NCBI GenBank assembly: GCA_000004985.1
Contig: GG738884.1
Reading direction: 5' to 3' (one strand)
From: Naegleria gruberi
Lineage: Eukaryota
Length of the DNA: 64,000 nt
Shown: piece by piece, positions 1 to 61,929 of the stretch
Layout of the letters: each line of letters starts with the position of its first letter
Numbering within the stretch: the stretch's first letter is position 1
Translations under genes and position numbers: made by a program
The notes under the pieces: generated by a model
The model's input: only the letters and a program-made list of their open reading frames with translations
Told to the model about the DNA's origin: nothing
Database searches by the model: none

Positions 1-577
<577 letters not shown>

Positions 578-657
578 ATATTATATTATATTAAATATTA
601 TTAAATGTTATTATTGTTGTTAATAAATAGACTTTTGTAAAGTTTAAGAATAAAAAA

Positions 658-1533
658 ATGAATGAAGCAAATTGTTCTTGTTGTTTAATAGAATTACCTA
701 ATTATATAGAATGTATTGAAAATGATATTGATAATAATTGGAAACCTTTTAAATTATTAAATTGTTCATGTAACAAACAACATGACAATGATATTAATAA
801 TGATAATATTAATCAATCGGAATTATCTACTTCTACCACTACAGTATCATCAAATAATAATAATGATGATGAAATATATGAATTTAAATTTATTGAAAAT
901 AATATTGAAAGTGAACAAGTTAAACATGAATTAAATCAAAATTATTTAAAAATTAATTGTATTGAAAATTTAAATCAACAATTTAATAATTTTATTATTA
1001 TAAATAATAAATTTGATAAATTAGTATTTAATAATTTAAAACATAATCATTTTCATTTATTAAATTTAAATTTAAATAATTTAAATTTTACAAATTTTAA
1101 ATTTAAAATTAAAAAACAATTATTTACAAATTGGTCATTAATTACATTAAATAAAATACCTAAAAATACATATATAGGAGAATATGTAGGTAAAATAAAT
1201 ATAGAATATTCAAGTACTAGTAATGAATCATTAAATAATTATATTTTTAATTTAAATAATTTTAATAATTTTAATTTAAAAAAATATAAAAAATTTGAAA
1301 TTTGTGGAAAATATTTTGGTAATTTTTCATCATTTATAAATCATTCATGTAATCCAAATTTAGAAATATATTATTGTTATGAAAATAATATAGATATAAG
1401 ATTACCTAAAATATACATTTATAGTAATAAAAATATAAATATAAATGAAGAATTAACATTAAATTATGGAATTAAATATAATTTAAATGAATTTAATTGT
1501 AAATGTAATTCAATTTATTGTAAATTTAAATAA
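658..1533 (+). CDS. SET-domain lysine methyltransferase, extremely Asn/Ile/Lys-rich, 291 aa
   Basis: Single ORF with the SET signature GEYVGKI...FINHSCNPNLEIY...ELTLNYG and a post-SET CKCNSIYCK motif. N-terminal Cys cluster CSCCL...CSCNK. Local GC about 11%. Confidence 0.75.
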   Translation: MNEANCSCCLIELPNYIECIENDIDNNWKPFKLLNCSCNKQHDNDINNDNINQSELSTSTTTVSSNNNNDDEIYEFKFIENNIESEQVKHELNQNYLKINCIENLNQQFNNFIIINNKFDKLVFNNLKHNHFHLLNLNLNNLNFTNFKFKIKKQLFTNWSLITLNKIPKNTYIGEYVGKINIEYSSTSNESLNNYIFNLNNFNNFNLKKYKKFEICGKYFGNFSSFINHSCNPNLEIYYCYENNIDIRLPKIYIYSNKNININEELTLNYGIKYNLNEFNCKCNSIYCKFK

Positions 1534-1915
1534 TATAACTATCACATAAAAGTACAATTACTACTATTTATGTATTATAATACCTATCAACTTCATAAAA
1601 GTAATATTATAATTTAAATTTATTATATTGATTGATCCATAACATAACAAGATGACAATTAAAGATATTGTGTTGAATGAATAATAATCAATTTAATAAT
1701 TATTAAAAAAAATATCTCCTCTACAAGTGAGTGTGTTATTATAATTTTGATCATACATTCCGATACATGATTTATATTATACATCATTATTATTATCATT
1801 ATCCTATATAAATAATAAGAACAATTTATCATCACACAAATATTAGTATAAAACTAATAATAATAATAATCAAAATAATAATATTCAATCATCATCATTA
1901 ATAATAATAATAATA

Positions 1916-3046
1916 ATGAAATCTATAACATCATCTGAAAATAATCAAAATAATCAAATAAAATCATTTACAATAGAATGTAGTGGATATTGTACACATT
2001 CAAATCACATGACAGATTCATCAATATCATATTGTAATAGTCAATCTATTAAATTTCCATCTTTATTTGGAATATTTAAACATACTAAATATGGATATAT
2101 ATTATATGATACTGGTTATTGTAATAGATTTTATAAAGAAACTAGTAATTTACCTTTTTATTTATATGGTAAATTAATACCTGTTTATTTAAATGAAAAT
2201 GAATCTGCAAGTGAAATATTAAATACTAAATATGGTATAAATAATAATGATATTAAATTTATTATCATTTCACATTTTCATGCAGATCATATAAGTGGTT
2301 TAATTGATTTTCCAAATGCTAAATTTATTTATTCTAAAGAAGGTTTTGAATATTTAAATCAATTAAAAAATTCAAATTCAAATATTAAATGTTGTTTAAA
2401 TGGATTTATACCAAATTTATTACCTTTGGATTTTTTAAATAGATCTATTCAATTATCTATAAATGATTTTAAATTTATTAATAATATTCCATTTAAAGTA
2501 TTTGATTTATTTAATGATAATTCTATTTTTATTGTTGATTTACCTGGTCATTGTTTAGGTCATTTTGGTGTTTTTTTTAAATGTAATAATCAAAATTTAT
2601 TACATAATAATACTATTAATAATAATGAAAATATTAATATTGATAGTAATAGTAATAATATGACTAGTAATGAAAATATTAATATTGATAATGAAAAATC
2701 ATATTTACTTATTGGAGATGCAGCATGGTCATTAAGAGCTATAAAATTAAATGCATTACCACATTTGTTAACTAAATATTTTGTTCAACATGATTGGAAT
2801 GCCTATTCAAATACTCTGAATGAATTACATAAAATTTATAATGAATCAAGTTTTCATATTAATAATTTGAAAAAGACAAGAAAAGGTCAAGAACCAATTA
2901 ATCCACAAAAAAAGATTACAAATCATATTAGAATTATACCATCTCATTGTTGGCAAGTTTATGAATCATTTTGTCAACAGCAACAACCACTTGGTAGTGA
3001 TGGTACAACTCCAAGTACCACCACTTCAATAATTTCCAAATTGTAA
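1916..3046 (+). CDS. Metallo-beta-lactamase-fold hydrolase with an Asn-rich insertion
   Basis: ORF contains the HxHxDH motif (ISHFHADHISGL), then PGHCLGH and IGDAAW metal-ligand motifs typical of the MBL superfamily. Confidence 0.7.
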   Translation: MKSITSSENNQNNQIKSFTIECSGYCTHSNHMTDSSISYCNSQSIKFPSLFGIFKHTKYGYILYDTGYCNRFYKETSNLPFYLYGKLIPVYLNENESASEILNTKYGINNNDIKFIIISHFHADHISGLIDFPNAKFIYSKEGFEYLNQLKNSNSNIKCCLNGFIPNLLPLDFLNRSIQLSINDFKFINNIPFKVFDLFNDNSIFIVDLPGHCLGHFGVFFKCNNQNLLHNNTINNNENINIDSNSNNMTSNENINIDNEKSYLLIGDAAWSLRAIKLNALPHLLTKYFVQHDWNAYSNTLNELHKIYNESSFHINNLKKTRKGQEPINPQKKITNHIRIIPSHCWQVYESFCQQQQPLGSDGTTPSTTTSIISKL

Positions 3047-6343: not shown

Positions 6344-6506
6344 TAATTTGTAAAAATTAATTTGTAAAATATTTATAAAGTTTTAACTTCATGAAAGTTT
6401 GTTTTCATGAAAATGTTACAATAGTTCTATTGTGTATATCAAATAGTCAAAGTATATTACTATTGAAAGTATAGTAAAGTATAATATATTGAAAGAAAAT
6501 GTTAAA

Positions 6507-7481
6507 TTACAAAATTTGACATTTTTTCTTTTGTGGACGATTGACATTATTTTGTGGATTGTCTTTCAATTTTTGTTTCATTGCAATTCCAACAGCCAAA
6601 TCAAAAGCATCTGCTAAATTTTCCATAGTCTTTGCACTACATTCAATATATCCTGATGCTTTAATTCTATCTTTCATTTCATTACCTTGTTCCGAAGTGA
6701 CAGGTTCAATTCTCTTATCTTTAAGTTTTTTAATATATTCTTCATCTTTCTTTAAATCTAATTTTGTACCAACAAGAACAATTGGAGTATCTGGATTGTA
6801 ATGTTTCAATTCTTCTGCCCATTTACTTTGACAATTTTCAAGTGAATTTGGATTTTCTAATGAAAAACAAACAAGAAATACATCAGTACTATTATTATTG
6901 TAATTATATATTTGGATTATAGAATAGATTTGGAAGATTAGAATAGTTATATTAGATTGGAATAGTTGATCGTTATTAGATTATATTAGATTGTTAGAAA
7001 TATAATGATGAATATAATAATAGGTCAATGAAATGATGGAATTTTAAAATAACCTACTCTGGATATGACAATGGTCTCAAACGACTATTAATTGTTATTA
7101 TAATAACAATAACAATAATAATATGTTCATCATGATGAAAATGTGATCAAATGATTATTGTGAAACATATATTCAAACCGTTCCATCATTAACGCTGTTA
7201 ATAATTTCTAAATAACTTACTCATAACTATTAAATATTGATATTATTATTATTAAATATATATTAACAAAGTAGTAAATATAATAAAACATACTCTTCTT
7301 GACCAGCAGTATCATATAAAGCAATACTAACAATACCATCACCATATGAAATATTCTTATTATAATTATCAAAAACTGTAGGAACGTAATCTTCAGGGAA
7401 ACAACCTGATGAATAGGCTATTAACAAGGCTGTTTTACCAACTGCACCATCACCTACAACTACACATTTAATAGATTCCAT
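6507..7481 (-). CDS. Rac/Rho-family small GTPase with a CQIL CAAX box. Three exons 7481..7294, 7084..7058 (27-nt micro-exon) and 6888..6507.
   Basis: [20 protein letters not shown]...YDTAGQED | RLRPLSYP | [46 protein letters not shown]...CSAKT...KKKCQIL. G1-G5 motifs are present. The exon 1 donor is GTATGT and the micro-exon is flanked by AG/GTAGGT. Confidence 0.8.
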
Positions 7482-51875: not shown

Positions 51876-53732
51876 ATGCCATTCCGAAAAGACTTTCTTC
51901 GTTATACAATAGCCAAAGTTAAAACAACCTTTGATGATAAATGGAGTGAACGTCTCTTTGTCATTACGAGAGAGGAAGTACTCAACACTTCCATTTCCAT
52001 TGGAAGTCGATTAATTGGTGCTTCTTCATCATCAAGAAATTTAATGGGGGGTGGAGTTTCGAATAGTGGTAGTGGCAATAGCAGCAATAATACATATTTT
52101 GTTTATTCTGTTGAAATTTATAGATTGAAAGATGAGGCAATAATCAAGATGGCTATTGCTGATTATGAAAATCATTCCAATAATAATAATAATAATAGTA
52201 ATAATAGTAATAATAATAGTGGAATGTTGAGTCATTCTAATTCGTTTATTGGTGGAGTTTCGAATAATGGTAAATTAATTTCATCTCTTTCACCAAAAAC
52301 CAAGTCAACACTTCACAGGGATATTAAATTAATGTCAGCAAAAGAATTGACCAATAGAAACAATACTATTATATTGTTTTTTGAAAAACCAATTTATGTG
52401 AATTTTAAAACTGAAAGTGATTATGTGGATTGGTATGAATATGTTTCTAAAATTATTGGAAGTGAAGAGTCGAGTGTTAAGGAGGGAATTGGAGCAATTA
52501 TTGAGAGTATTACTGATGCTTGTGTTGTGAGTGATGCTGATGGAATAATTACTGCTTTTAATACACAGGCAGAGAAATTGTTTGGCTATTCGAAAGAGGA
52601 AGTTATTGATAAGAATGTAAATGTGGCAGTTTTAATGCCAGAAAGTTATGCCAAATACCATCAACAAATTTTAACAAGATATAACAAACATAGAAATAGA
52701 ACAATTATTGGAAAACCAAGAAATTTATTGGCCAAACATAAACTTGGACACAAAATGCCAATTATTATCAATGTTGGTGAAGTTCAAGACTCAAATCCTC
52801 AATCAAAATACAGATATATTGCCATGTTTCGTGATTCAATGTGGAGAGTTATTAATTATATGAATCAGGGAGCTAGTAGTAATGATGAGAGTTCATCAAC
52901 AAGTGATATACTTCCAAGTGTTGCAATGGATCCATCATTCCACGATACTCATAGAAGCGCAGAGAAATTAAAACTTCAAATTCAAAAGAGGACAAAGACT
53001 GAAATTTCCAAATTTGAGGAAGAAAGTTTGAGAATGGTGGAAGAATTACTTAAAATGTTACAATCAGTTTCATCGACTATTAATATTTTGGAAACAGAGA
53101 AGGAAAGACTTGATATGTTATTTTGTGAATTACAAGAGAAATCAGTTCACACTGAACAAGTACTGAAAGAAGCTCAATCAACAAGTCAAATTTATCAAAC
53201 CTATCGAAAATTGTTAGATAATTTCCTTCATTTTGACAAGATAACAGATATGGCACAGGATCAACTCTCTAGAGATTGTCTTTCTTGTTGGAAACAAATT
53301 CAAATGTTCAAGAAGGCAAGTAGAGCTTTTGATCAACAACAAAAATTCAAAAATATGGTTTCACATGCTGGAGAGATTACAAGAAGAGCTAGAACAAATT
53401 CAGTTTCATCTGACGCTAAATTGGAAAACATGTTCTCGAATATTACAAAACCAGAAATTATTTCATTAGCAGTTCAACTATTCGACAAGTTCTTAACTAA
53501 CTATGAAAAGGGAGAGGAACCAATATCCAAACATCACTCTACGAGTTATACATCTTCAGTTATTTCAGTAGTCACACCACACGTATTACCAGTCATTAAG
53601 GGAGCACTTATCAAGTGGAACAATCAGCTATCGAATAGTGGAATTGATTCGACTAGTATTTCTCCTGAGCTATTCTATTTTGTTGAGAAGGATATTCTTG
53701 ATTTTTTAAAGAATGATCCGATCAAAAACTAG
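51876..53732 (+). CDS. PAS-domain signalling protein with an N-terminal PH-like region and a C-terminal coiled coil, 618 aa
   Basis: The central segment GIGAIIESITDACVVSDADGIITAFNTQAEKLFGYSKEEVIDKNVNVAVLMPE...YRYIAMFRD is a PAS fold. It has a poly-Asn/Ser linker. Confidence 0.55.
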   Translation: MPFRKDFLRYTIAKVKTTFDDKWSERLFVITREEVLNTSISIGSRLIGASSSSRNLMGGGVSNSGSGNSSNNTYFVYSVEIYRLKDEAIIKMAIADYENHSNNNNNNSNNSNNNSGMLSHSNSFIGGVSNNGKLISSLSPKTKSTLHRDIKLMSAKELTNRNNTIILFFEKPIYVNFKTESDYVDWYEYVSKIIGSEESSVKEGIGAIIESITDACVVSDADGIITAFNTQAEKLFGYSKEEVIDKNVNVAVLMPESYAKYHQQILTRYNKHRNRTIIGKPRNLLAKHKLGHKMPIIINVGEVQDSNPQSKYRYIAMFRDSMWRVINYMNQGASSNDESSSTSDILPSVAMDPSFHDTHRSAEKLKLQIQKRTKTEISKFEEESLRMVEELLKMLQSVSSTINILETEKERLDMLFCELQEKSVHTEQVLKEAQSTSQIYQTYRKLLDNFLHFDKITDMAQDQLSRDCLSCWKQIQMFKKASRAFDQQQKFKNMVSHAGEITRRARTNSVSSDAKLENMFSNITKPEIISLAVQLFDKFLTNYEKGEEPISKHHSTSYTSSVISVVTPHVLPVIKGALIKWNNQLSNSGIDSTSISPELFYFVEKDILDFLKNDPIKN

Positions 53733-55167: not shown

Positions 55168-57408
55168 TTACAAATTATTTGCAGCATTGTTGCTCGATTG
55201 AACTTGATAAATTTCATGCCAATGTTGAAACTCTGATGTCTCTACAAGTCTACTCAATGTATCATTCAAATTAACAATAATTTCATCAGAGAATAATTCG
55301 TATAATTGGATGGCAGTGGATGAATTGGTTGTTGCATTCTTTTTCATTTCCATGAAGGAACGTCTGGTGTTGGATGGAATATTGAGCTCGAAATTTGAGT
55401 TGGCAGCAATGAAATCATCATTAATTTCATCAAGTATTGAGATTTCTAATGTGGAATTGCCGAATTGCTTTTTGAGTTGAGTAATTTTTTCAAAAAAGAA
55501 TATATTTTCCAAACTAAACTCTTTGGAAGAAAATTCTTTGAAAATTAATTTGAAATTATCATCCTTGAGGAAATTTTCCAATTCTGAAAGGGTTTGGTGA
55601 TTTCTCTTTCGTAAAATGGTGTGAAAAGTTTCGAATATTAATGCGAAACCTCCACACATGAAAATAAACAAGACACTCTCAAAGAAGAAATAAACTCTCA
55701 GATTCGAAGGGTCACAAACATGAATAATCGCCACAATCAACAGAAGAATCATGGAAAGTAAATCCACTCTTACCTTAAATGGATCATCATATTTCAGAAA
55801 GCTGACTAAACCTTTCGTCTTGATCTTTTTCCAATTCACAATACAATCCACAATAACAGTTGCAATTCCCAATGAACATCCCACAAGAATGTAAATTACA
55901 AAACTAATATTTGTAACTGAGAAAACTTCCTCTTCAAACATGAAAATGTCAAAAAACATGGCCATTCCATGAAGAGAAAAAACTACTGAGCTAATAGCCG
56001 AAAGTAGAATAATCAAAAGAATTGAATTCAATGGTGAAACTAATCTTTTCACAATTGATATTTGACCAATTTTCTTATTGACCAGAAGTGGATTATTAAG
56101 CAATGAATACAAATTTCTCAACATGTAAAATCTGACAACTGTCAAGACATAACTTGCAATAATCCAAGTAATGACAAACATTCGAATATAATTAATAACT
56201 TGTAAGCAAGCTTTGTTAAAATAATATGAATGAGTCAACTCGAAAAAGTAAATAGAAATAGGTAAATAAGGAACAAGTAATCTTCTCTTAAACGAATCCT
56301 TTAGGAAAAATCTTGAACTAAACAAGATAATAAAATACAATGTTACAATAATGAGAGTAGGAATATTCCAATAATCTTGATTGGCAGAAATATAATCATT
56401 ACATGTACTCTCAGTGCAAAAGTGATATTGTGAAGAATAATAATTCGAATAAACATTTTCTAGACTAAACTGTTGAGGAAATGAAGAAACATTTAGGAAT
56501 TGAAGAGTTTTTAGCATCATTTTGTCAAATGCCAATGAATCTGACGTGAAATTGACGGGAGAATTACCATAGGTAAGTAATAGATAATTGATAAATTCAA
56601 GATCTTGTGTTGTGACCTTTCCAAATTCGAAATATTGATTCAATGTAATTATATCCGAAACGTAGTAAGAATTTTTGGGATTAAATGTGGAATTTCCCAA
56701 CATGAAGAAAGGGTACACATCATATTCATAACCTACATTGGAAGGAGCCAATTTGATTGGCAGAAAATCAGACGGATTGATCAAGGTTGTTTCGTTCCAT
56801 TGACTTTCTGTCAGTTTCTCAGATGAAACTTTTCTCTTACCAGTTGATTCTCTATAATAACGAATGACATCAAAAAAATCTCCTGGTAGTGCAATTATTA
56901 CATCAAAGTCTTCAAATACATGTCTTGGTCGACAGTTTCGTCTGTAGAATAAGAAAGGAGAAATCGAATAACTTTTTCCTTCGTGAGTTGTTTGTACATC
57001 CATGTCTATTCCATGATATTTGAGTAAATTACTAAACAACAACACTTGATGTCTGTCAATGCCAATCTTCAAGATGTTTGTGCCCATGCTTGTATTATTA
57101 TTCCTAATGATACTTATCAAATCGTCCAAGGAAGATATACGAAACTCTTGGCTGATTTGATTCCATATGAAAGCAACCAAGTGTTGTTGAATGAAAACAA
57201 TAGGAAGAGATGGAGAAAGATATCCTTTTCTAATATAGTTAGAATTCACATACGAATCATTCCATTTAAATTGATGCAAATTATAGTGAACTGACCAGTC
57301 CAAGACATCTTTCGAATAGAGTTCAGCTGAATGGATTAGCGCACTAGTTGATAATAGAAGTAAAACAACAACTTTAACCACATGTGTGGTGGCATGAGCT
57401 GTTTTCAT
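55168..57408 (-). CDS. Hybrid receptor: signal peptide, large N-glycosylated ectodomain, 7 predicted TM helices and a C-terminal RGS domain
   Basis: N-terminal hydrophobic leader VVKVVVLLLLSTSALIHSA. About seven hydrophobic segments lie between residues 340 and 590. The C-terminal FSSKEFSLENIFFFEKITQLKKQ... matches the RGS box (SxENxxFW). Confidence 0.6.
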   Translation of the reverse strand: MKTAHATTHVVKVVVLLLLSTSALIHSAELYSKDVLDWSVHYNLHQFKWNDSYVNSNYIRKGYLSPSLPIVFIQQHLVAFIWNQISQEFRISSLDDLISIIRNNNTSMGTNILKIGIDRHQVLLFSNLLKYHGIDMDVQTTHEGKSYSISPFLFYRRNCRPRHVFEDFDVIIALPGDFFDVIRYYRESTGKRKVSSEKLTESQWNETTLINPSDFLPIKLAPSNVGYEYDVYPFFMLGNSTFNPKNSYYVSDIITLNQYFEFGKVTTQDLEFINYLLLTYGNSPVNFTSDSLAFDKMMLKTLQFLNVSSFPQQFSLENVYSNYYSSQYHFCTESTCNDYISANQDYWNIPTLIIVTLYFIILFSSRFFLKDSFKRRLLVPYLPISIYFFELTHSYYFNKACLQVINYIRMFVITWIIASYVLTVVRFYMLRNLYSLLNNPLLVNKKIGQISIVKRLVSPLNSILLIILLSAISSVVFSLHGMAMFFDIFMFEEEVFSVTNISFVIYILVGCSLGIATVIVDCIVNWKKIKTKGLVSFLKYDDPFKVRVDLLSMILLLIVAIIHVCDPSNLRVYFFFESVLFIFMCGGFALIFETFHTILRKRNHQTLSELENFLKDDNFKLIFKEFSSKEFSLENIFFFEKITQLKKQFGNSTLEISILDEINDDFIAANSNFELNIPSNTRRSFMEMKKNATTNSSTAIQLYELFSDEIIVNLNDTLSRLVETSEFQHWHEIYQVQSSNNAANNL

Positions 57409-57757: not shown

Positions 57758-57828
57758 AAGAAGAGGACTGATGGTCTCTCTTTGCTATCATCCAAACACG
57801 AAAACGTGTGGTGAAACATTTCAAAAAA

Positions 57829-58830
57829 ATGGTCAAACTAAACTATTTGATATTTGCAGTTCTTATTTGTTTGGCAATTGTTGTTTCTCAAGTTAGATGT
57901 GGTGGTCAAGATTGTGATCCTTCCAAGGTTGGTTCTGGAATCCATACTCTTTATGTTGAAGATGAAGAAATGCTGAACTCACTCATGAATAAGAAACATA
58001 TTGTAAAGTTAACTAAAGCAGGAAGAAAGAATGTTTACAGAAAGCTTACTCGTGGAGGAAGAAGAAACAGCAAGATGTTGAGAAGATTAGTTAAAAGACA
58101 AGTAGCTCGTAAGATTTCCCATGAAAAAACAGAGAAGAGAGGAAGAATTGGTCATTCGGTCCATAATAAGGTTTCCAATAACAACAAACATGCTAAAACT
58201 AAGGTTTCCAACAAAAAACTCCATTCTAAAGCTGTTTCCTCTCCAAACAACACCAACAAGAGAGTCTCAGACGTTAAACCTCGTGAAACAAGAGATATTG
58301 GAAAGAGTGAAAACGAAAAACCTGCTCCAATCGAAACCAAGAAGACTCCAAAAGATGTTAACAATATGACAGCTCAAGAAATCATCAACCAATCAATTGC
58401 TACATTTGACGGTGCAGTTGGCCCTAGCAATAAGGCTCTTCCAAACAGAAGAATTCTTACAAGCAAGAAAGGTATTCTCAAGGAACAAGATGAAGATTAC
58501 AAACGCCAACAAGAAAAACAAGAAATGTGGGAACCAATCGACACTTCTTGTGTTGCTTGTAGAGTTGACTGTATGAAAACCTATTCTCAAGTTGGTGGCA
58601 GTATTTTTGAATCATGCAAATTCCAATACTATTACTATGGATGTAAATATCATGACGAATGTTTTATGGCTACAACTACATCAGATGAGAAAATTAAGGG
58701 CATGCTAGGAATTTGTTTGTTGAGAAATGGATGTAAATTGAAGGGTGAATGGAATTCCTATGGAGTAGATGACGCTGTTACTGGAAGATTGCTTGGAAAA
58801 CTTCGTGCATCCAATGAAAAACCAGAATAA
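57829..58830 (+). CDS. Secreted basic protein with a C-terminal Cys-rich domain, about 334 aa
   Basis: Signal peptide MVKLNYLIFAVLICLAIVVSQVRC, a Lys/Arg-rich middle, and C-terminal cysteines (CVACRVDC...CKFQYYYYGCKYHDEC...CLLRNGC). No family recognised. Confidence 0.5.
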   Translation: MVKLNYLIFAVLICLAIVVSQVRCGGQDCDPSKVGSGIHTLYVEDEEMLNSLMNKKHIVKLTKAGRKNVYRKLTRGGRRNSKMLRRLVKRQVARKISHEKTEKRGRIGHSVHNKVSNNNKHAKTKVSNKKLHSKAVSSPNNTNKRVSDVKPRETRDIGKSENEKPAPIETKKTPKDVNNMTAQEIINQSIATFDGAVGPSNKALPNRRILTSKKGILKEQDEDYKRQQEKQEMWEPIDTSCVACRVDCMKTYSQVGGSIFESCKFQYYYYGCKYHDECFMATTTSDEKIKGMLGICLLRNGCKLKGEWNSYGVDDAVTGRLLGKLRASNEKPE

Positions 58831-58978: not shown

Positions 58979-61929
58979 CTATTTTAATATTTTGTTGATT
59001 TTAGTACAGAAAACATCAGCTGTTGTTCTTAGAGAAAGAGATGATGTAGGTGGTGATCCAAAACAAGATCTATATTGGCATCTATTACCATAAAAGCCAA
59101 AATTACAATCACACTTGTCAAGTCCGTTGCAAATTCCATTTCCACTACAAACTAAACCATTATTGGCATAAATTCCATAACATTTAGAATACTGACAATA
59201 GGTACCAATTGAATCAGCACAATTAGAACAAGTTTCTGGAGCTATACAGAGTCCTCTGCCAGAACAAACTGTTGAATTGGAAGGAGAAATTGAATTACAT
59301 GTATAATTGGAACAAGTCAAACCAGAATAACCTTCATCACATAGACAAGAATTTGGAGATTGGCAATGGCCATGTGAAGAACAAACAGAAGGGTCTGTAG
59401 AATTCACACCAAAACATGTATACTCTTCTCTAGTAACTATTGCTGCACGACCATCAGAACAAGCAGTCAAATATGGAATTCCATCAAAGTATTGTCTTGG
59501 ATACAGTGCAGGTGTTGAAATTGTGGTAGAAAATCCTTGACTTGGATTTGTTTCATAAGCATTGTTAATTCCTGCAGTATACAGATTACCCTTTCTACTA
59601 ATAATATAAAATCTTCCAGAATAATCACATATATCCACAACATAGGAATCACCTATTGGTAAACTAGGTTTAATTGGTGATCCGTAGACATAATAAAATT
59701 GTCCTGTAGTGGAAATTAGTAACAAGTTAGTGTAAAATCCAATATACATTTTCCTAAATTTGATGTTTCCATTCATTCTTACAAAAGTTGGCTGATTTTC
59801 TAATCCACTATTTGAAATAAATCTCTCAGACCCTCCATTCCTACCACATCCATACACGTTTCCTCTATCTGTTAAAAGGAAAACATTATTCTGACCTGCC
59901 CTAATGTCAACAATTTGTTCATCAGGAGTTAAGAAGGAAGTGGTATTAATTTGAGTAAAGGAAGTGAAGGTACTTGTGGGTGCAGAGCTTCCTAATCCCA
60001 TCTGATAATAATTGTTTGCACCAATTCCCCACAATGTATCATTGTTAAATAGTACATAAGTATTTGCACTACCAACAGCTACCTTTTTTACATCATTTGC
60101 AAATAATACTGGACTATTGATGTTCGAAGATACTCCATTAAATGCTGAAGAAAGACCCCAACCATACACTTCTCCACTATTTGTAAATGCTATGGCAGTA
60201 TTATGTCTGATATCTATTGTTGAAATGTCTTTGTCTACAAAGGTTTGAGGGGCACTTTTTGGTGTCAATGATGGAACTCCAAAATTCAAACTATTACTAC
60301 AATCTCCCCAATAATCTAGAGCATTGAAATTTCCTGTTTCATTGTGTAACTTAGAGAAAACAAACATACACGATATTCCACCAACGATTTTAGAGACTGT
60401 GACATTTCCAGAGGCAAATGACGAAATTGAAAGCTTTCTTGGATATCTAATAGCACGTTCCTCTCCCAAAGTCAACACGGAAGCGGTATTGCTAGTTCCC
60501 CAAACATTCACTGATCCATCTGAGGTTATTGTCAAACCATGCACATTTGAAATTCTTGCCATAATTACTTGAGCATCATTTACCATGGTGACCTTATCGT
60601 AATTTGGTGTTGAGCTATGTCCAAGAAAATTAACATAACCCCACGAAACCATGTAGCCAGAGTTGAGTAAACATGCTGACGAATATCCAGCAGCAAAGCA
60701 CTCTGTGGTATTTTCAGTAATATTAATTCTCGTTGGGACATAGATTGATGTTATTGAGGAGTCTGGATATGATTGCTTGTAGGTATTATCTCCAAAACCA
60801 TAAACATCTCCACTATCCAATGTGACCAATGCATGTCCATATCCAAACACTACTCTTATCACTTTGGACGGAAGTAAAGTCACAGGTTGTGGAAACTCAC
60901 TTGTAGCATTGACTGTTGAGTTCCAACCTAACAATCCATAATAATTACTTCCCCATGTCCATAAAACACCATTTATATCAATGGCACCAGCTGCAGTTCT
61001 TCCAACTTCAGCATTACCTGGTCTTTGACCAGATGAAATTGTTGTAATATTTCTGAGTGATGGAATCATGTAGGGAATATATTCACTATTACTAAGTGGA
61101 GTACCTCTTAACCCAAGATTATGACATCCATAACTAAATACATGTCCATAATTGGTTACTGCAAATATTGTTTCACATGTATAGTATCCACCAATCGCCA
61201 CAGATACAAACTTGACATTTGTTAAAATTTGGGAAGTGTCTGGATCTGTGTATTGAGTGAAAGAGAATAATCTTGCCCAAATGCCTCCTGTGTTATGATA
61301 ATAAACCCATCCATCACTTGTCAATATTATACATGAACGAATACAGCTCATGTATGCTATCTTTCTACTACTTGAAAATGGATTACTGGCCTTACCAGCA
61401 TCAGTGTAAATGTAAATTAATTCTATGGATTATTTCAAAAGGGATTACAAACTAAACTAACTTAAATCTTACCTGGTTCTGACATGATTGCAGGAGGATT
61501 GAGCACTGCAGCTTGTCCATTTTCATTACTACCAGACACAAATACATATTGTCCTAGAGAATTATTAGTTGTTGTGTTGTAATATTCTAAAATATAAAAC
61601 ATGGCATGATGATGATTGACCAATTGTTGAACACTGTGTGAAACATCAAATCTTTCAATGCCACTCGCTAATTTCCATGATTCCGTACTATTTACCAGTA
61701 ATTTCTGTAGGATTGTATTAGAAATTGGATAGGTTGATGTTGGTACTGTTAATGCACCAAAACCATTGCTATTAAAATCTCCAAATGTATAGAGGTTTTT
61801 GCTGTTGATTACGTCTTGCGCTTCTACTTGTGTTAATATTACTGCATAATGTATTACTAAACAGGACAACAGAATTATAAAACAATAAATTCGTGATGAT
61901 GAATTGACTGCTGCAGAAAGTGTTAACAT
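58979..61929 (-). CDS. Secreted RCC1-like beta-propeller protein with C-terminal tandem EGF-like repeats. Exons 61929..61473 and 61422..58979.
   Basis: Signal peptide on the 5' exon. A 50-nt GTAAGA..CATAG intron. Repeated GxG..h..G.V(Y/W)..G.N..GQLG-like blades (GYGHALVTLDSGDVYGFGDNTYKQ). The C-terminal Cys spacing (C..G.C....C.C..G..G..C) is EGF/tenascin-like. Confidence 0.65.

Follow-up and report, generated by a model that had tools for sequence, protein, structure and literature searches.

The 64,000-nucleotide stretch of Naegleria gruberi DNA analysed here (contig GG738884.1 of assembly GCA_000004985.1; hereafter the window) carries on its minus strand, at 55168..57408, an uninterrupted open reading frame (ORF) of 746 amino acids, the stop codon of which occupies 55168..55170. 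We conclude that it is probably a single-exon gene for a '7TM RGS' protein, a receptor with seven transmembrane (7TM) helices and a regulator of G protein signalling (RGS) box, acting as a GTPase-activating protein (GAP) on G-alpha. The ORF had been singled out from the sequence in an original prediction that described it as a seven-transmembrane receptor fused to an RGS domain; it is real and was already called as a gene, since its product is 100% identical to XP_002674436.1 (EFC41692.1; UniProt D2VN73; NAEGRDRAFT_70394). That entry, from a gene on a 363-kb contig, is deposited as 'predicted protein', with a Pfam RGS domain as its sole existing annotation. The start of the ORF is the first ATG of a stop-to-stop frame that opens just seven codons upstream.

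The receptor begins with a hydrophobic leader, MKTAHATTHVVKVVVLLLLSTSALIHSA (residues 1-27; 57328..57408, minus strand), within a Kyte-Doolittle peak spanning residues 6-31. A hydrophobic N-terminal segment also opens most full-length paralogues, and the leader is plausibly a signal peptide; the confidence of the structure model is low across it. An ectodomain of 315 aa (residues 28-342) leads into a bundle with the fold of a G-protein-coupled receptor (GPCR; residues 343-597; 55618..56382, minus strand), recognized by hydropathy and in the structure model, with helices at about 343-364, 378-398, 402-428, 459-483, 494-522, 546-565 and 571-597. The positive-inside count, 16 against 1, places the C-terminus in the cytosol, and the N-terminus would accordingly lie outside the cell. 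Three cytoplasmic-loop motifs are conserved across the family: KRRLxxPYxxP in the first intracellular loop (ICL1), RxxYLRNLY in ICL2 and KGxxxFLFFDDPFYxRxDL in ICL3 and TM6. A structural search with the bundle returned class C GPCRs as its best matches, a tentative likeness; Pfam GPCR families, 7tm_3 included, gave no match at E<=1 for the receptor, nor at E<=0.1 for any of 36 family members. The leader, the large ectodomain, the seven hydrophobic helices and the C-terminal RGS box of the original prediction are thus all present, and the resemblance it drew to AtRGS1 and to protist GPCR-RGS hybrids is borne out in the architecture.

The RGS box follows some ten residues past TM7 and extends over residues about 607-745 (55174..55590, minus strand), leaving a tail of about 12 aa. 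Three lines of evidence identify it: a Pfam match, a fold match and the residues of the G-alpha contact. Pfam PF00615 scores 26.8 bits at residues 610-697, above the gathering cut-off of 23.9, and is also matched by 29 of the 36 family members (E<=0.1). PDB sequences were searched both with the receptor alone and with the profile of its family; RGS domains, including RGS10, RGS17 and RGS4, were the only matches, and none fell in the ectodomain or the 7TM region. RGS10 was the best phmmer match of the receptor itself, and the 36-member profile reached its best E of 3.9e-8 with RGS17. The box is predicted to have the all-helical RGS fold: in the AlphaFold2 model, Foldseek aligns it with RGS1, RGS8 and RGS16 at probability 1.00, target TM-scores of 0.71-0.80 and rmsd of 2.3-3.3 Å, the best match being RGS16/RGS8 (TM-score up to 0.80, rmsd 2.3 Å).

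For the contact residues, RGS4 was added to the 36-member family alignment and the residues touching the G-alpha switch regions were taken from the RGS4-Gi-alpha-1 complex; the RGS4 numbering matches the chain ranges of 1AGR as HMMER reported them independently. RGS4 E87 corresponds to E634 (36/36 members), N88 to N635 (35/36), N128 to N676 (36/36), D163 to D716 (35/36) and R167 to R720 (36/36), while S164 is replaced conservatively by T717 (36/36). Because these contacts are conserved, the RGS box looks catalytically competent. In fungal 7TM-RGS receptors, mutation of the pair equivalent to E87/N88 to Ala abolishes function (PMC10794492). It is conceivable that the box is instead a non-catalytic docking or effector module, as in GRKs or RhoGEFs, and that the protein serves as a scaffold or as an effector of G-alpha; loss of GAP activity has occurred in some RGS domains (PMC3971589), the Pfam score is low, and the receptor has an insertion relative to RGS4 at residues 685-698. 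The invariance or near-invariance among the 36 paralogues of the canonical contacts, including the N128 equivalent and the E87/N88 pair, makes this very unlikely, and the closest solved structures (RGS1, RGS8, RGS16, RGS10 and RGS17) are catalytic domains of the R4 type. Experiments on relatives also speak against it: when isolated, the RGS domains of 7TM RGS2, 3 and 4 from N. fowleri accelerate GTP hydrolysis, selectively, on N. fowleri G-alpha 2, 3, 5 and 7, and the N. fowleri domains that were tested work through the canonical interface (PMC9283941).

How widely is this architecture shared? The family was delimited with phmmer, run exhaustively against 1.84 billion cluster representatives; a word-indexed homologue search was uninformative, in that the whole protein retrieved only itself and the ectodomain profile retrieved nothing, missing known members. 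The scan yielded 234 cluster representatives at E<=1e-3, 34 of them at E<=1e-30. Alignment reaches into the ectodomain in 29 of the best 150 matches, and many more share the 7TM bundle and RGS box, or the RGS box only. The named members come from N. fowleri, N. lovaniensis, other N. gruberi loci and Willaertia magna, with others on environmental or JGI contigs and the more distant 7TM-RGS matches on JGI or ENA contigs, and no fungal or plant protein occurs among the named matches. The layout of leader, ectodomain, 7TM bundle and RGS box is common to most full-length members. With its seven helices, its C-terminal cytoplasmic RGS box and homology across both, the receptor is a member of the Naegleria 7TM RGS family. 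A distant member, P0103, bears a REJ and GPS ectodomain on the same core, which it shares from TM3 to the end; that one core carries different ectodomains points to the N-terminal sensor being a swappable module of the family. The family representative P0037 lacks a leader and has a weak N-terminal F-box match (E 0.0044, below threshold); its N-terminus may be mis-called or may be a different module.

The best match of the receptor, at E 3e-108, is the N. fowleri protein P0002, and the genomic setting bears on their relationship. Some 400 bp from the receptor gene, in head-to-head orientation, lies a divergent ORF of 340 aa (57808..58830, plus strand), for which a Pfam scan matched no family; its product has a hydrophobic leader, then a Lys-rich middle and a Cys-rich C-terminus. 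The last 67 aa of this product are 42% identical (E 1e-15) to a 279-aa gene at 6421-7260 (minus strand) of the N. fowleri locus L001, which adjoins the P0002 gene in an equally divergent arrangement. Because the neighbour is kept in this arrangement, the setting supports P0002 as the orthologue of the receptor despite an identity of only about 34%. The receptor gene and that for the secreted Cys-rich protein look like a conserved pair with one common intergenic region, shared with the N. fowleri locus only. P0004 of N. lovaniensis was considered as an orthologue and rejected as a paralogue: it is 31% identical to P0002 and has no neighbours in common. In N. fowleri (L001 11283-12925, minus strand) and N. 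lovaniensis (L003 1268-2972, minus strand), separate RGS-domain genes stand no more than a few kb from the 7TM-RGS genes; with RGS genes so numerous in Naegleria, the proximity may be coincidental.

The low identity to the orthologue would also suit an artefact of gene calling or, in so large a family of paralogues, a copy decaying into a pseudogene, and among the 229 RGS proteins of N. gruberi (PMC3971589) some copies are likely decaying. Yet the receptor gene runs through 746 codons without interruption and encodes every family-invariant residue, and its head-to-head neighbour has been retained in N. fowleri, so that we regard decay or artefact as extremely improbable.

The most distinctive part of the receptor is its ectodomain. 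Its folded alpha/beta portion (residues about 64-322; 56443..57219, minus strand) resembles a type-II periplasmic solute-binding protein of the NMT1/NrtA/SsuA/ProX kind, and conserved in the family are C159, D169, F178, D214-F215 and the motif 'DFxPIxLxP'. Pfam scans found no family in the ectodomain of the receptor at E<=10, no periplasmic binding protein (PBP) family in 23 ectodomains of the same type, and no GPS motif before TM1 of the receptor; nor is the ectodomain a Venus flytrap of type I (ANF_receptor). The connection comes from the paralogue P0036, the source of the single NMT1 hit in the family scan: its residues 73-145 match Pfam NMT1 (PF09084) with 22.3 bits, above the cut-off of 20.5, and the ectodomain of P0036 is aligned by hhalign with the profile of the receptor-type ectodomain over 136 columns (probability 86.8%, E 4.3e-6). 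Judged from sequence, this transitive link through P0036 ties the receptor ectodomain, putatively, to the type-II PBPs. The comparison set for that class comprised NrtA/CmpA, SsuA/TauA/NMT1, PhnD and ProX/OpuAC/EgtU, together with the ligand-binding cores of ionotropic glutamate receptors and the EvgS/BvgS sensors. Relative to bacterial type-II solute-binding proteins and PBP-II sensors, identity is 6-15% over the roughly half of the receptor ectodomain that aligns, and the C-terminal part of the receptor ectodomain is helical; no binding-pocket residues could be identified in it from comparison with type-II solute-binding proteins. There is an appreciable chance, short of an even one, that the ectodomain is a structural, adhesion or protein-binding domain with a merely superficial likeness to one PBP lobe, and no small-molecule flytrap at all.

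Between this domain and the bundle lies a juxtamembrane Cys-containing stalk, YHFCTESTCNDYISA (residues 328-342; 56383..56427, minus strand), delimited from family alignments; its family consensus is LLPSxCHxCxxTxC, with C331 and C336 conserved. Most paralogues have a first stalk Cys, at about residue 328, and another Cys at about residue 243 (window positions about 56425 and about 56680, minus strand), both of which are missing from the receptor, its N. fowleri orthologue and three other members. Because the two are lost together, the pattern suggests that they form a disulfide in the members that have them. The glycosylation attributed to the ectodomain in the original prediction is not evidenced and was dropped: it holds seven N-x-S/T sequons where composition predicts 3.9, a density no greater than that of the cytosolic tail, with four against an expected 3.0. 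The large size noted there is genuine, but it is unusual only beside AtRGS1 and fungal class VI receptors, large ectodomains being the rule in Naegleria (PMC9283941).

We find no mention of a PBP-II-like ectodomain in the text of the N. fowleri study (PMC9283941), and no prior description of a PBP-like ectodomain on a 7TM-RGS protein was found in the literature, the likeliest source (Anantharaman et al. 2011, Gene 475:63) lying outside the coverage. The combination of such an ectodomain with a class-C-like bundle is the one addition of the present work; it is moderately supported and possibly new. The locus is otherwise an ordinary, uncharacterised member of a large gene family that has already been described and partly characterised.

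What could such a protein do? Taking AtRGS1 and the RGS domains of 7TM RGS2-4 from N. fowleri as analogues, we infer GAP activity, ligand binding and a direction of regulation for the receptor. The RGS box would bind the switch regions of GTP-bound G-alpha and speed GTP hydrolysis, and the receptor-GAP would thereby keep off one or more of the many G-alpha subunits of Naegleria, some of which undergo spontaneous nucleotide exchange. The ectodomain, the 7TM bundle or both would sense an extracellular cue that alters GAP activity, occupancy of the sensor modulating the brake, and the change, whether a conformational shift or removal of the receptor from the membrane, would release G-alpha signalling. 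N. gruberi encodes 44 G-alpha subunits (PMC8584482), in keeping with the expectation that the genome should hold them; none lies in the window, where tblastn with G-alpha-i1 and RGS4 and the family hidden Markov model run on the six-frame translation found no G-alpha gene, no other RGS gene and no other family member.

The original prediction went further, envisaging control of G-alpha without a canonical GPCR acting as guanine nucleotide exchange factor (GEF). Its receptor-GAP component agrees with the activity of the isolated N. fowleri domains; the absence of a conventional GEF is not established, since candidate conventional GPCRs also exist in Naegleria (PMC9283941). Might the receptor be such a GEF itself? 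The main competing account makes it a G-protein-activating GPCR that brings an RGS brake along in cis, much as if the mammalian class C orphan GPR158 were covalently joined to RGS7-Gbeta5: a ligand would activate G-alpha through the cytoplasmic face of the 7TM bundle, and the tethered RGS box would quickly stop it, giving brief signals. A GPCR fold and conserved cytoplasmic loops would suit this account, but such loops might just as well hold G-alpha in place for GTP hydrolysis or recruit arrestin-like or endocytic factors. The Pfam GPCR families show no sequence match to the receptor, no 7TM-RGS protein is known to act as a GEF, and no experiment anywhere speaks for the account. Some Naegleria G-alpha subunits, moreover, need no GEF, N. 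fowleri G-alpha 5 and 7 being self-activating (PMC9283941). We consider this account unlikely.

Several points weigh against the receptor-GAP interpretation as well. The PF00615 score is just 3 bits over its threshold and spans model positions 2-83 of 117, the remainder of the box resting solely on the family alignment and the structure model. The experiments cover other family members, and none of them concerns XP_002674436.1 or its orthologue. We know of no ligand for any Naegleria 7TM RGS protein, nor of any protist 7TM-RGS protein with one. According to Bosch et al., the effect of extracellular cues on GAP activity is undetermined (PMC9283941), and in Aspergillus oryzae the phenotype tested did not require the 7TM part of class VI receptors (PMC10794492).

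In 'GEF-less' G-protein signalling, G-alpha activates itself and the receptor turns it off; 7TM-RGS proteins have been proposed as the receptors. A solute-binding-protein-like ectodomain offers a practical route to a ligand, such domains being usually expressible alone and screenable with small molecules. The family is also present in the brain-eating amoeba N. fowleri, the G-protein pathways of which have been suggested as drug targets (PMC9283941). We hypothesize, tentatively and with less than even confidence, that the subfamily is a class-C-like receptor assembled from different parts: a type-II flytrap, a short Cys stalk, a class-C-like 7TM bundle and a covalent output that is a GAP rather than a GEF. 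If so, the approximately 29 cluster representatives with such an ectodomain would be radiated small-molecule chemoreceptors for nutrients, anions or osmolytes, each releasing G-alpha signalling directly upon ligand binding, and the flytrap-7TM design would have been reinvented convergently with inverted signalling logic.

The neighbours of the receptor gene are a PAS-domain protein, two ORFs without a family match and an RCC1-repeat/EGF protein. The PAS-domain ORF (618 aa; 51876..53732, plus strand) matches PF00989 at residues 207-320 (E 2.9e-12); it carries poly-Asn/Ser runs and has a long C-terminal part beyond the PAS domain. The RCC1-like ORF (790 aa; 58979..61351, minus strand) matches the beta-propeller family PF25390 (E 2.4e-54) and joins this propeller, normally an intracellular module, to C-terminal Cys repeats of the EGF/teneurin type; its combination with repeats of extracellular type is unusual. 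The window is AT-rich, with a GC content of 30-35% for most of its length, falling to 17.7% at positions 1..2000 and standing at 22-30% from 2 to 16 kb.

Plants (AtRGS1), fungi (class VI GPCRs) and many protists are all known to have fusions of a 7TM bundle with an RGS box (PMC3971589, PMC3386157, PMC10794492). The nearest of these systems is that of N. fowleri, with 28 '7TM RGS' proteins and complex ectodomains containing EGF, lectin and GPS elements (Bosch, Jeck and Siderovski, JBC 2022, PMC9283941). Like the receptor, they place a C-terminal RGS box directly after the 7TM core and have large and variable ectodomains and a canonical G-alpha/RGS interface; the four that were studied have ectodomains of EGF-like, lectin and GPS type, whereas that of the receptor subfamily is PBP-II-like. 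The fungal class VI GPCRs (GprK, GprR and MoRgs7/8) share the order of 7TM bundle and C-terminal RGS box, and their GAP function needs the E/N pair that is conserved in the receptor as E634/N635 (PMC10794492). They are without a large ectodomain, and their likeness to the receptor is one of layout, with no evidence of direct 7TM homology.

AtRGS1 likewise resembles the receptor by layout, its cytoplasmic RGS box coming after seven TM helices. Its extracellular N-terminus is nearly absent, its linker between TM7 and the RGS box is longer, and it has a phosphorylated C-terminal tail that drives endocytosis. The receptor, in contrast, has an ectodomain of 315 aa in place of a minimal N-terminus, a linker of about 10 aa and a tail of about 12 aa. 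The G-alpha on which AtRGS1 exerts its GAP activity is self-activating, and regulation of AtRGS1 by extracellular glucose has been proposed (PMC3386157, PMC3718340).

The class C GPCRs (mGluR, CaSR, T1R and GABA-B) have in common with the receptor the succession of a ligand-binding PBP-type ectodomain (putative in the receptor), a Cys-containing stalk and a 7TM bundle. A sequence match of the receptor to Pfam 7tm_3 is absent, and the parts themselves differ: the class C flytraps are type-I PBPs (ANF_receptor) whereas the receptor ectodomain resembles type II, and in place of the nine-Cys domain of about 70 aa the receptor has a stalk of some 15 residues with two or three Cys. GPR158 likewise has an RGS protein, RGS7-Gbeta5, at its cytoplasmic face, but recruits it, whereas the receptor carries its RGS box covalently fused.
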